This document shows, in pieces, positions 18,168 to 48,167 of a stretch of 64,000 nucleotides of DNA. The notes beneath the pieces were generated by a model. The model was not told where the DNA came from. It worked only from the letters and a program-made list of their open reading frames with translations, and made no database searches. Numbering within the stretch: position 1 is the first letter of the stretch; each line of letters opens with the position of its first letter. The translations under genes and the position numbers were made by a program. The stretch is from assembly GCA_016198755.1 (NCBI GenBank), contig JACQIB010000003.1:6767-70766 (forward strand), given 5' to 3'. The DNA is from Candidatus Aenigmatarchaeota archaeon. Its GTDB lineage: Archaea > Aenigmatarchaeota > Aenigmatarchaeia > Aenigmatarchaeales > JACQIB01.

Positions 18168-18292
18168 GCCCCCCTAGTTTTTGGGGAAAGCTCAGCATGG
18201 ATGGAGCGCCTGACTTCTAACGAGCGTTAGAAGATCTGACAACAGATGAAGAAATCAGGAGGTCGCGGGTTCAAATCCCGTGGGGGGCACCA
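18168..18292 (+). tRNA. tRNA-Arg(TCT), two intervening sequences, CCA encoded
   Basis: Acceptor GCCCCCC/GGGGGGC, D arm GCTC-AGCATGGATG-GAGC, anticodon stem CCTGA/TCAGG, anticodon TCT at 18216-18218, T arm GCGGG-TTCAAAT-CCCGT. A 34-nt intron (18220-18253) sits at 37/38 with bulge-helix-bulge helix CTTC:GAAG. An extra 13 nt (18177-18189) lies between position 9 and the D stem, flanked by CCCC/GGGG pairing. Confidence 0.8.
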
Positions 18293-30981: not shown

Positions 30982-31518
30982 TCATGGCTTGAAGAACTTT
31001 ACCGCATAATATCCAACAGAATCTTTGTAAACAACAGCCCAGAGCATGTTTGCGCGGATATTATGGGCTAATCTGACAGCTCTGCTGAGTTCAGGGAAAG
31101 AGAAAACATAGTTTTCCGGAACAGCAAACACAATCCATTTTGTGTGTTCCCCAGCACTTTTAGGCCCCCTTTTCAGTGGTTTCACACCTTTGTTGTAAAC
31201 CCTGAAGTCACATCCAAACTTAAACCCTGTTCTGGTTGGTAGTTCTTTGTTTCTCAAATCTTTGTAAACAGCATAGCGGAAGCTGAAGCGCGGATCTTTT
31301 TGGTTGCAATACTGGAACATTTCCTCCTTTCCAACCTCTTTTCCTGTCTTATCCACCATAGTTACCTTTCCAATATCCAGTAAATATGCAGCTTCTATTA
31401 ACGCAAGTTCAAGCCTGTCTTCCCTGGGCTTTCCCAGATAAAGCTCTTCAAACAGCTCATTTCCCTTTTCCCTGTCCCATACAACAGCTCTATTTTCTGC
31501 TAAAACAACTTCTATCAT
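30982..31518 (-). CDS. endA: tRNA-splicing endonuclease subunit (EndA paralog 2; Tyr and His present)
   Basis: YKDLRNKELPTRTGFKFGCDFRVYNKG, GEHTKWIVF, RLAHNIRANMLWAVV, aligned by eye to M. jannaschii EndA. Confidence 0.85.
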   Translation of the reverse strand: MIEVVLAENRAVVWDREKGNELFEELYLGKPREDRLELALIEAAYLLDIGKVTMVDKTGKEVGKEEMFQYCNQKDPRFSFRYAVYKDLRNKELPTRTGFKFGCDFRVYNKGVKPLKRGPKSAGEHTKWIVFAVPENYVFSFPELSRAVRLAHNIRANMLWAVVYKDSVGYYAVKFFKP

Positions 31519-31519
31519 T

Positions 31520-32041
31520 TTATCCCACCTTCGGAGATTCTATTATGTAGTAAGTACAGTCAGAGTCATTATCCACAACAGCCCAGAGTGCAACAGATTT
31601 TATATTTTGTGCAAGTTTTATTGCTTTCCCAAGCTGCTCTAAAGCACATGGATAATCTTCTGCTGAAGTAAAAACAATCCATTTCACTGTTTCAGCTTTC
31701 CCAGGTTTTGCACCACGTTCATAAACCCTGAAATCACATCCCTTAAATCCTGTTCTCACTGCTAATCCACGTTCCCTCAGGTCTTTGTATACTGAATAAC
31801 GGGCCATGAAATGCTCGTCCCTTTCAGAACAATAATTCAGAATTTCTTTCAAAGAAAGTTTTTGCTCTCCTATAACTACCTCTAGCTTTCCCCTCTCCAA
31901 AAGAGCTGCTGCTTCTATCTGGTCCAGTTCAAATCCACTTCCAAGCGGATTACCATACCAGCCTGTTTCGTATAGCTCCTTTGCTTCGGGGCCTTCAACA
32001 ACAACTTTGTCATTTTCCAGCTTTCCCGTCAGCATATTCAA
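31520..32041 (-). CDS. endA: tRNA-splicing endonuclease subunit (EndA paralog 1; catalytic His position substituted)
   Basis: YKDLRERGLAVRTGFKGCDFRVYERG, KAETVKWIVF, KLAQNIKSVALWAVV. Separated from the downstream paralog by 1 nt. Confidence 0.8.
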   Translation of the reverse strand: MNMLTGKLENDKVVVEGPEAKELYETGWYGNPLGSGFELDQIEAAALLERGKLEVVIGEQKLSLKEILNYCSERDEHFMARYSVYKDLRERGLAVRTGFKGCDFRVYERGAKPGKAETVKWIVFTSAEDYPCALEQLGKAIKLAQNIKSVALWAVVDNDSDCTYYIIESPKVG

Positions 32042-32961: not shown

Positions 32962-33090
32962 TGGTGGGGCAGGCGTGATTTGAACACGCGACATTCCGCA
33001 CTGCACACAATAGGTATGCAGTTCCACGGTCTTCAGCCGTTTAAGCCTCTTTAATTAAGAGTGTGCTCTCCCGAGCTGAGCTACTGCCCC
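32962..33090 (-). tRNA. tRNA-Phe(GAA), two non-canonical introns, CCA encoded
   Basis: Acceptor GGGGCAG/CTGCCCC, D arm GCTC-AGCTCGGGA-GAGC, T arm GCGTG-TTCAAAT-CACGC. Anticodon loop CTGAAGA (GAA at 33034-33032) in stem CACGG/CCGTG, which forms only after removing a 22-nt intron (33041-33062, position 27/28, BHB helix GAGC:GCTT). A 30-nt intron (32994-33023, position 44/45, BHB helix CCGT:GCGG) restores a 5-nt variable loop. Lengths sum exactly: 77+22+30=129. Confidence 0.75.
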
Positions 33091-46316: not shown

Positions 46317-47012
46317 ATGAAAAGCAGAATACCTGCAGGCTTAAAGTATGCTGTTTTTGATTTAGATAATACTTTAGTTGAAGGAAGAGTTGCAAGCTAT
46401 ATTGGTAAAAGCTATTTTTTTAGAGAGTTATTTGGGCTCAGAATAGGTCATCTTTACAAAGGATGGAAAGGAATGAAAAGTGTTAAAGAAATTCTGAAAG
46501 AAGGCGGGGAAGATGCTGAAGCAAGGGGAATGGAAGCTTTTATGGGAGTTTTGGGGGAAACTAGAATTGCAACATGGGATAGTATATACGATTATGCAAA
46601 GAAGGCTGTAGAAAAACATGAATTGCCTGGGGCAAAGGAATTTGTAGGAAAATGTAAAAATAATGGACTTCAAACTTATATTGCCACTCTTGGGCTGCTT
46701 ATATCAGCGCAGGCAGCTAGGGATTATTTTGGCGCAGATGCTGCGCGCGGCAACTCGCTTATAGCTGAAAATGGAATAATTAGGGGAGTTAAGCTGACAA
46801 TGAAAACAGGTGAAGATAGGCTAAGAGAGGTAAGAACTATAGCAAATGTCAATGAGGCACTTGTTGTTGGAAACGATAGATTAGACTGGCCTTTGATGGA
46901 TGCTGCAGGTTTTTCTGTTGCAGCCCCGCTGGCAGATGAGGAAACTAAAAAAAGAGCTGACATTACTATTACAGATTTCAGGGAATTGGAGTTTGAGCCG
47001 CGCAAGGTTTGA
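46317..47012 (+). CDS. HAD-superfamily hydrolase (SerB/phosphoserine-phosphatase-like subfamily)
   Basis: Motif I AVFDLDNTLVEG; C-terminal VVGNDRLDWP (motif IV-like). Confidence 0.65.
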   Translation: MKSRIPAGLKYAVFDLDNTLVEGRVASYIGKSYFFRELFGLRIGHLYKGWKGMKSVKEILKEGGEDAEARGMEAFMGVLGETRIATWDSIYDYAKKAVEKHELPGAKEFVGKCKNNGLQTYIATLGLLISAQAARDYFGADAARGNSLIAENGIIRGVKLTMKTGEDRLREVRTIANVNEALVVGNDRLDWPLMDAAGFSVAAPLADEETKKRADITITDFRELEFEPRKV

Positions 47013-47023
47013 AAAAAAACAAG

Positions 47024-47230
47024 TGGTGGGCGGGAAGAGATTTGTTCAGCTTAGTCCTACCTGAGGGGGTAGGGCTGTAGGGGGAAACTTCCCCCTGAGC
47101 TTTGAACTCTCGGCCACCAGTTAACCTAAACTTTTCGGAACGCAGCCACGCTTTCACGCGAGTGCGCGATTATAAGACTGGCGCTCCAACCGGGCTTTGC
47201 CTTGGCTTTTGCCAAATGAGCTACCCGCCC
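47024..47230 (-). tRNA. tRNA-Ile(TAT), three introns (D-loop 14/15, anticodon 37/38, T-loop 58/59), CCA encoded
   Basis: Acceptor GGGCGGG/CCCGCCC. D arm GCTCA[21 nt, 47196-47216]GCCCGGTTG-GAGC. Anticodon stem CCAGT/ACTGG, loop CTTATA[48 nt, 47123-47170]A, with TAT at 47174-47172 and BHB helix CTTA:TAGG. T arm GAGAG-TTCAA[60 nt, 47042-47101]AT-CTCTT with BHB helix GTTC:GAAC. 78+21+48+60=207. Confidence 0.75.
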
Positions 47231-47267
47231 ACAAGTCTATTTATTCCTTGGAAGGGAATTTAAACTA

Positions 47268-48167
47268 ATGCTAAAGGGTAGTTTAGTAGAGGCTGTCGAG
47301 AATCTGCTGGAAAAGAATGATTATGTTACTTTCGGGTATTCTGGCTGTTTTGATTTGGCAGCTAGAAGGGAAAAAACACTTTTCCTGAAAGTTTTGCAGA
47401 ATGTGGATTCTTTTTCTGAAGCACAGTCAAATAGCCTGAAAATAATCTCAAATAACATAAATGCGACAGCCTTCCTTGTTGGACTGCATACGCGCAGGGA
47501 AAAGCTTGCAAAGGGTGTTGTATATGAGAGGTTTGATATACCAACTGTTTCAATGGAAACACTGAAAGAGATAATTGAGTTTGATGTTTTCCCAAAGTTC
47601 CAGAGGGATAGGGGAGGGTTTTATGTGGAGATAGATTCTGCTGCACTCAAGAAATTAAGAGTTCAGTCAGGCTTTACACAGAGAGAATTAGCAGAGGCTG
47701 TTGGAATAAGCAAGAAAGCAATTTACGAACATGAGAAAGAGCAATTAAGGATGGATTTGAGCATTGCTGAAAAGCTGGAAAAACTGCTTGAAGGGAAAAT
47801 AACAATGGAGTTTTCTCCCCAGAAATTTTCTGTTGGCAAATCAATACCCTCCTCAAAAATAGAAGGATCTGTGGCTTCAGCCCTCTCAAAGAAGGGATTT
47901 TCAGTTGATTTCGTTTCCTCTGCACCATTCGATATTTTTGCAAAAGAAAAGACCGTTATTGTTTCAGATGTGGAAAGGATTGGGGGAGGAAAGAGGACTC
48001 TTAATCTGGAAAGGTTCATAGCTGTAGTAAAAAAGCCCGCTTTTGTTGTTTCAGAGAAAAATACTGAAGAACACGCCGAAATACCTGTTATAGCAAGGAA
48101 AGAGCTGGGAAACATAAGCAAGGAAGAAATAATAAGAATTGCAAAAAGAGCAAAGGTACTGAAATGA
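47268..48167 (+). CDS. XRE-type HTH domain protein with flanking uncharacterised domains
   Basis: Central HTH_3 pattern LRVQSGFTQRELAEAVGISKKAIYEHEKEQ. Confidence 0.55.
   Translation: MLKGSLVEAVENLLEKNDYVTFGYSGCFDLAARREKTLFLKVLQNVDSFSEAQSNSLKIISNNINATAFLVGLHTRREKLAKGVVYERFDIPTVSMETLKEIIEFDVFPKFQRDRGGFYVEIDSAALKKLRVQSGFTQRELAEAVGISKKAIYEHEKEQLRMDLSIAEKLEKLLEGKITMEFSPQKFSVGKSIPSSKIEGSVASALSKKGFSVDFVSSAPFDIFAKEKTVIVSDVERIGGGKRTLNLERFIAVVKKPAFVVSEKNTEEHAEIPVIARKELGNISKEEIIRIAKRAKVLK

Follow-up and report, generated by a model that had tools for sequence, protein, structure and literature searches.

A gene interrupted by three introns very probably encodes the tRNA-Ile(UAU) of an Aenigmatarchaeota archaeon

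How does an archaeon read the isoleucine codon AUA when the anticodon UAU is written directly in one of its tRNA genes? The usual archaeal route relies on a tRNA-Ile2(CAU) and on the agmatidine made by TiaS. Here, we analysed a window of 64,000 nucleotides (the whole stretch of DNA under study) from an archaeon whose genome assembly measures 0.89 Mb, has 40% G+C and is estimated to be 89% complete. We argue that one locus of this window is very probably a single, functional tRNA-Ile(UAU) gene of this Aenigmatarchaeota (DPANN) archaeon. According to this interpretation, a TATA-like box would drive transcription of a precursor of about 207 nt, an endonuclease made from two adjacent paralogous genes would cut three motifs of the bulge-helix-bulge type (at 14/15, 37/38 and 58/59), and RtcB would ligate the four exons, giving a tRNA of 78 nt whose CCA is encoded. 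Isoleucyl-tRNA synthetase would charge the product, U34 would pair with the A of AUA, which is used more than any other isoleucine codon, and tRNA-Ile(UAU) would replace the usual route of tRNA-Ile2(CAU), agmatidine and TiaS. Among these steps, we infer transcription, the order of splicing, isoleucine charging and any modification of U34 against AUG reading.

The original prediction had placed a tRNA gene at 47024-47230. The location stands, with one correction: the gene lies on the minus strand, from window position 47230 (the 5' G1) to 47024 (the A of the encoded CCA), and precursor positions are counted from 47230 as position 1. Read 5' to 3', the locus comprises:

47258..47264, minus strand: TATA-like box TTTAAAT, a consensus match about 28-34 nt upstream of the mature 5' end.
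47230-47217, minus strand: exon 1, 14 nt, with acceptor strand GGGCGGG, U8, A9, D-stem strand GCTC and A14; the exon matches the 5' end of orthologues exactly.
47216-47196, minus strand: intron 1, in the D-loop at 14/15, 21 nt (TTTGGCAAAAGCCAAGGCAAA), precursor 15-35, placed by homology.
47195-47171, minus strand: exon 2, 25 nt, with the remaining D-loop GCCCGGTTG, GAGC, G26, CCAGT, C32, U33, U34, A35, U36 and A37.
47174-47172, minus strand: anticodon TAT, inside exon 2, read directly.
47170-47123, minus strand: intron 2, in the anticodon loop at the canonical 37/38 site, 48 nt.
47122-47102, minus strand: exon 3, 21 nt, with A38, ACTGG, variable loop TGGCC, GAGAG and the T-loop part TTCAA.
47101-47042, minus strand: intron 3, in the T-loop at 58/59, 60 nt, member of a multi-copy intron family.
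47041-47024, minus strand: exon 4, 18 nt, with A59, U60, CTCTT, CCCGCCC, discriminator A73 and the encoded CCA.
47009..47019, minus strand: run of eight T (CCACTTGTTTTTTTTC), directly after CCA.

Removal of the three introns leaves a product of 78 nt (GGGCGGGTAGCTCAGCCCGGTTGGAGCGCCAGTCTTATAAACTGGTGGCCGAGAGTTCAAATCTCTTCCCGCCCACCA) with a 7-bp acceptor stem, a 4-bp D stem, anticodon and T stems of 5 bp each and a 7-nt anticodon loop. In precursor numbering, the acceptor strand GGGCGGG (1-7) pairs with CCCGCCC (197-203), followed by A73 and CCA; GCTC (10-13) pairs with GAGC (45-48) in the D stem; CCAGT (50-54) pairs with ACTGG (110-114) around the anticodon loop CTTATAA; and GAGAG (120-124) pairs with CTCTT (192-196) around the T-loop TTCAAAT. 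The conserved tRNA nucleotides T8, A14, the GG of the D-loop, T33, A37, TTCAAAT and A73 are present in the spliced sequence, which ARAGORN reads as tRNA-Ile(tat), a perfect cloverleaf with every stem paired. That a gene of 207 nt with inserts of 21, 48 and 60 nt yields a 78-nt tRNA had been predicted beforehand, and the hand fold, ARAGORN and the orthologues all agree with these values. The TAT anticodon, also predicted, is upheld by the ARAGORN call on the spliced product and by a homologue from another family of the phylum (G142), free of introns, whose anticodon arm is contiguous and which ARAGORN also reads as Ile(tat). Under a strict pattern, a TATA-like heptamer starting between -40 and -24 is present in 22 of the 42 tRNA genes that we identified in this genome, and the run of T after CCA is likely an archaeal terminator.

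The unspliced gene escapes the standard finders. ARAGORN missed the locus whether or not introns were allowed, and the Rfam tRNA model (RF00005) gave no match to the unspliced gene even at E <= 10, as expected from 129 nt of inserts. These failures on the unspliced sequence made a fold by hand necessary. With the same Rfam model, the intron-free homologue scores 71.7 bits and an orthologue with one intron (G032) 55.5 bits. Across the genome, ARAGORN with introns recovered 18 of at least 42 tRNA genes, some with wrong anticodons, and Rfam at its gathering score recovered 16. Our own catalogue was made by searching G+C-rich stretches for acceptor stems followed by CCA, each gene being read by hand. 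It contains 42 tRNA genes, each of which encodes its CCA and most of which have one to three introns; an intron at 37/38 is found in about 60% of the tRNAs of this genome. The catalogue is not exhaustive, since no method found Gln-UUG, Ser-GGA or Arg-CCG. Scanning for T arms plus CCA without an acceptor requirement returned noise and no further tRNA, and probes for T-loop intron families and GC-rich islands revealed no hidden tRNA and one orphan intron-like element.

Some calls of ARAGORN had to be set aside. On shifted intron placements of our gene it returned Thr(GGT) and Thr(TGT), mis-spliced permutations that the orthologues exclude. With introns allowed, it also gave a second Ile(tat) at window 32962-33090 (minus strand), which comparison with a relative's tRNA-Phe identifies as tRNA-Phe(GAA) with two non-canonical introns, one around 29/30 (inside the anticodon stem) and one near 43/44. 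Hence, there is no second Ile(UAU) gene at that place. A further call, Phe at window 18168-18292, turns out to be tRNA-Arg(UCU), in which an insert separates positions 9 and 10.

Is this fold maintained in relatives? Pieces of the spliced sequence are present in 40 of 42 genomes of the same order, and full orthologous genes could be extracted from 16 genomes belonging to 7 families of the order. These genes carry one to four introns at varying sites, their exons are nearly invariant and their spliced products have a mean column identity of 93%. The alignment that we analysed holds 13 distinct spliced sequences from 16 genomes (the gene here and 15 orthologues). Cloverleaf stem pairing is complete (273/273 cells, 100%) and falls to 36-57% when partners are slid, with compensatory changes on both sides in 9 of the 21 stem pairs; these pair counts are biased towards structure, as the orthologues were spliced by alignment to the spliced product of the gene here and two were corrected by hand. 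None of 500 shuffles reaches these values. The cloverleaf is conserved far beyond chance. In the phylum at large, the pattern GAGYGCYRGTCTTATA, which corresponds to the exact 5' half with UAU, is present in at least 61 of 201 genomes, and in 60 of these 61 the anticodon arm is interrupted after CTTATA, i.e. by an intron at 37/38.

The orthologues also indicate where the first intron lies. In those without an insert in the D arm, this arm reads GCTC-AGCCNGGTTG-GAGC, which puts intron 1 at precursor positions 15-35 and not 20-40; the latter placement, with its D-loop ATTTGGGTTG, is ruled out. The local minimum-energy fold of intron 1 has a 3-bp helix GCT/GGC, two 3-nt bulges (CAT and AAA) and a hairpin TTGGC-AAAA-GCCAA, and is thus modelled as a relaxed bulge-helix-bulge motif with a 3-bp central helix. 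The same fold lends itself to a slightly different reading, in which the gene is real and intron 1 is 20 nt long (precursor 15-34): the predicted bulges lie at 13-15 and 33-35, and cuts after the second base of each bulge would fall between 14 and 15 and between 34 and 35, giving a tRNA of 79 nt with an 11-nt D-loop, AAGCCCGGTTG. We regard this as quite unlikely. The central helix has 3 bp, which makes the register of the 3' cut uncertain. All 12 other distinct spliced sequences (from 15 other genomes) have A14-G15 and a D-loop of 9-10 nt. Moreover, all 12 carry a C at the last position of the variable loop, the partner of G15, which would be displaced by the additional A. The 21-nt intron is favoured by homology and by the G15:C48 pair.

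Local folds predict motifs of the bulge-helix-bulge type at all three intron sites, that of the D-loop being the relaxed one. Around intron 2, the modelled central helix joins C32-A35 (CTTA) to TAGG of the intron, with a 3' bulge TTA and a 5' bulge TAA that opens into a hairpin and not into a helix continuous with the opposite strand. When the fold is forced to contain this motif, its energy is -20.2 kcal/mol, 0.4 above the unconstrained minimum of -20.6. The 3' half of intron 2 (GGCTGCGTTCCGAAAAGTTTAGGTTA) is homologous to a shorter intron of 26-27 nt in G029, compared with which intron 2 has an extra 5' hairpin. A box C/D guide, sought by eye in the 48 nt of this intron, was not found. For intron 3, the unconstrained local fold itself gives an outer helix GAGA/TCTC and a central helix GTTC(A)/(T)GAAC, with a 3-nt bulge AAA on the 3' side; on the opposite, 5' side a helix comes after AA(A). 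The predicted cuts would thus lie at 58/59 and restore TTCAAAT.

The introns differ in their distribution. Introns 1 and 2 each have a sequence that is unique in the genome. The T-loop introns of tRNA-Gln(CUG), His, Lys(CUU) and Ser(GCU) contain the 38-nt core of intron 3 without any change. This core recurs with one mismatch in the T-loop of tRNA-Ile(GAU), and is also found in the D-loop of Glu(CUC) and once outside any tRNA. Free-standing copies of the family core (GCTCAGGGGGATGTTTCCCCCTACAGCCCTATCCCCTC, 95% identical) lie in intergenic positions C3:31444-31481 (minus strand) and C2:192110 (plus strand), and the copy in tRNA-Arg(GCG) (C5:12206-12414) contains a nested insert of 51 nt. The free-standing copies and the nested insert hint that the T-loop intron element moves.

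Splicing of such a precursor calls for an endonuclease and a ligase. The window encodes the former in two adjacent genes:

30982-31518, minus strand: first splicing-endonuclease gene, 178 aa.
31520-32041, minus strand: second splicing-endonuclease gene, 173 aa, 44% identical to the first.

Both proteins contain the Pfam domains tRNA_int_endo_N and tRNA_int_endo, and the relatives of the endonuclease gene are nearly all labelled Candidatus Aenigmatarchaeota. In the first gene (alpha), the catalytic Tyr and His are retained and a Lys-rich insert directly precedes the His, as in the alpha subunit of N. equitans. In broad-specificity endonucleases, the specificity loops sit at this insert site, near the catalytic His (PMC5829648). 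The second gene is without the catalytic His, and its protein resembles a structural subunit by sequence. At the position of the catalytic Lys of the M. jannaschii enzyme (K156 in 1a79), the alpha subunit has an Ala ('NIRA' instead of 'SVRK'), and 73 of 81 alpha-like genes from Aenigmatarchaeota MAGs show the resulting Y-H-R-A pattern. We assume that the endonuclease would be active despite the Ala at the canonical Lys position. The RtcB ligase is encoded as well (469.8 bits). Its gene, at C5:42797-45628 (plus strand), is a single frame of 1010 aa in which Pfam model positions 1-50 and 48-426 match about 480 residues apart, which probably reflects an intein inside the RtcB tRNA ligase.

If the locus yields a tRNA, does the cell need it? 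The original prediction expected tiaS to be absent, and a check was run. Neither the TiaS_FLD (PF08489) nor the TiaS_TCKD (PF22641) domain had a match in the genome, although the search was positive in 4 of 4 archaeal control genomes. A phylum-wide search with the TiaS_FLD domain alone found it above cut-off in 0 of 201 genomes, 92 of which are at least 90% complete. The expected absence of TiaS thus held up. So did that of a tRNA-Ile2(CAU), within the limits of a genome that is 89% complete: a third CAU tRNA was sought among the 42 tRNA genes and only two CAU genes were present. One is the initiator (A1:U72 and GGG/CCC in the anticodon stem), the other resembles an elongator tRNA-Met (acceptor stem of the GCC type, A73). 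Without TiaS, any CAU tRNA would read AUG. In 524 long open reading frames, AUA accounts for 55.5% of the isoleucine codons and, with 40.5 per 1000, is the third commonest codon overall. As judged from this gene content, the commonest isoleucine codon has no other decoder and the cell would be unable to do without tRNA-Ile(UAU).

One might still suppose that the locus is decaying or silent and that AUA is read by a TiaS-modified tRNA-Ile2(CAU), with both this tRNA and TiaS hidden in the 10% that the assembly lacks. The incompleteness of the genome, the failure to find at least three expected tRNAs and the unusually heavy intron load of the gene speak for this, yet we consider it extremely improbable. 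The phylum-wide lack of TiaS_FLD above cut-off, which includes the 92 genomes that are at least 90% complete, the order-wide conservation with compensatory changes, the intact stems, the encoded CCA, the TATA-like box and the T-run are at odds with it. Multi-intron tRNAs are, in fact, the rule in this genome, and silencing would leave the commonest isoleucine codon without any other decoder. Hence, we retain a functional tRNA-Ile(UAU) gene as the best explanation. Among five other tRNAs of this genome that were compared with its product, tRNA-Ile(GAU) is the closest, at 75% identity and with the T arm and A73 in common; this identity and A73 would fit a tRNA that is charged with isoleucine by IleRS and that reads AUA and not AUG.

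The tRNA could also work with a U34 that is unmodified or weakly restricted, so that AUG is read too and some isoleucine is tolerated at methionine codons. The system of Mycoplasma mobile is described in PMC3575796, and no enzyme specific for U34 modification was identified here. Such a reading bears on the fidelity of decoding and not on the identity of the gene. In the M. mobile study, U34 of tRNA-Ile(UAU) is reportedly unmodified. We judge it unlikely that AUG is misread to that extent. It is well established that the eukaryotic tRNA-Ile(UAU) can limit the reading of AUG, and so can the M. mobile system.

Given a functional tRNA-Ile(UAU), how might AUG be avoided? The eukaryotic tRNA-Ile(UAU) gene has an intron at 37/38, and in yeast this intron is required for the pseudouridines at 34 and 36. 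The gene here resembles it in using UAU for AUA and in its 37/38 intron, present in 60 of the 61 genomes of the phylum. One might speculate that this intron is kept phylum-wide because an anticodon modification that blocks AUG reading by U34 requires the precursor as its substrate; by analogy with eukaryotes, pseudouridine at 34 and/or 36 would be a candidate. The fold predicted for the precursor places U34 and A35 within the bulge-helix-bulge helix. In addition, the 3' halves of the 37/38 introns of tRNA-Ile(UAU) have in common the motif GRCTRCG(Y)T, with an A-rich tail behind it, in seven families of the order (the set being L002, L003, L011, L015, L019, L033, L034, L036, L037 and window 47123-47170), a conservation that exceeds the needs of the splice motif. 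Yet, pseudouridylation in yeast depends on the intron, whereas an intron-free archaeal homologue exists (G142). This homologue, together with the presence of 37/38 introns in about 60% of the genome's tRNAs, makes the idea rather improbable. If true, it would be an archaeal counterpart of the intron-dependent discrimination between AUA and AUG in eukaryotes. The gene makes it testable how a UAU anticodon avoids AUG in archaea; it gives no answer by itself.

The claim that an encoded tRNA-Ile(UAU) has been reported only in a few reduced archaea understates its range: it is published for ARMAN (PMC3239211) and for Nanoarchaeum and Korarchaeum (PMC6000648), and at least 61 of the 201 genomes of the present phylum carry the same 5' half with UAU. 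ARMAN-2, -4 and -5 have tRNA-Ile(UAU) and lack tRNA-Ile(CAU) and TiaS, and cleavage of the ARMAN-2 precursor was achieved in vitro (Fujishima et al. 2011, PMC3239211). The likeness to these organisms (Ca. Micrarchaeum / Parvarchaeum, DPANN) is close: an encoded UAU, no tRNA-Ile(CAU), no TiaS, a bulge-helix-bulge intron at 37/38, and a DPANN host with many disrupted tRNA genes (PMC3239211). Yet, ARMAN-2 has a single intron of 25 nt, against three of 21, 48 and 60 nt here, and a three-unit epsilon2 endonuclease instead of two separate adjacent genes; ARMAN also belong to another phylum, the host here being one of the Aenigmatarchaeota. In a survey of 167 archaeal genomes, tRNA-Ile(UAU) was present only in Nanoarchaeum equitans and Ca. 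Korarchaeum cryptofilum (PMC6000648). The Korarchaeum gene has an intron and resembles its own tRNA-Ile(GAU) (PMC6000648), as the gene here does with its 75% identity. In contrast, those genes have at most one intron, and in the present phylum the gene is common and not exceptional.

The intron architecture itself recalls other archaea. Thermoproteales and others with broad-specificity endonucleases have up to three introns per gene, non-canonical sites and relaxed motifs (PMC5829648). D-loop and T-loop introns, intron families common to unrelated tRNAs and an endonuclease insert near the catalytic His are all found here as well. Those lineages are TACK whereas this one is DPANN, and the alpha subunit here lacks the canonical catalytic Lys. 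Both tRNA-Ile(UAU) without TiaS and multi-intron tRNAs were thus known already, and the gene here is the normal state of its lineage. What it adds is that Aenigmatarchaeota, like ARMAN and Nanoarchaeum, gave up the agmatidine route, so that reading their commonest isoleucine codon rests on a single gene with many interruptions. In such genomes, many tRNAs are overlooked or wrongly named by standard tRNA finders. Hence, published 'missing' tRNAs in DPANN genomes need manual curation.

The neighbourhood of the gene is partly shared with relatives. A gene for an HTH_3 protein (window 47268-48167, plus strand) adjoins the tRNA and is divergent from it. In a genome of another family (G025; L011) the same HTH_3 neighbour is found with the tRNA upstream and in the same direction, and from this comparison the tRNA gene seems to be locally inverted relative to its HTH_3 neighbour.
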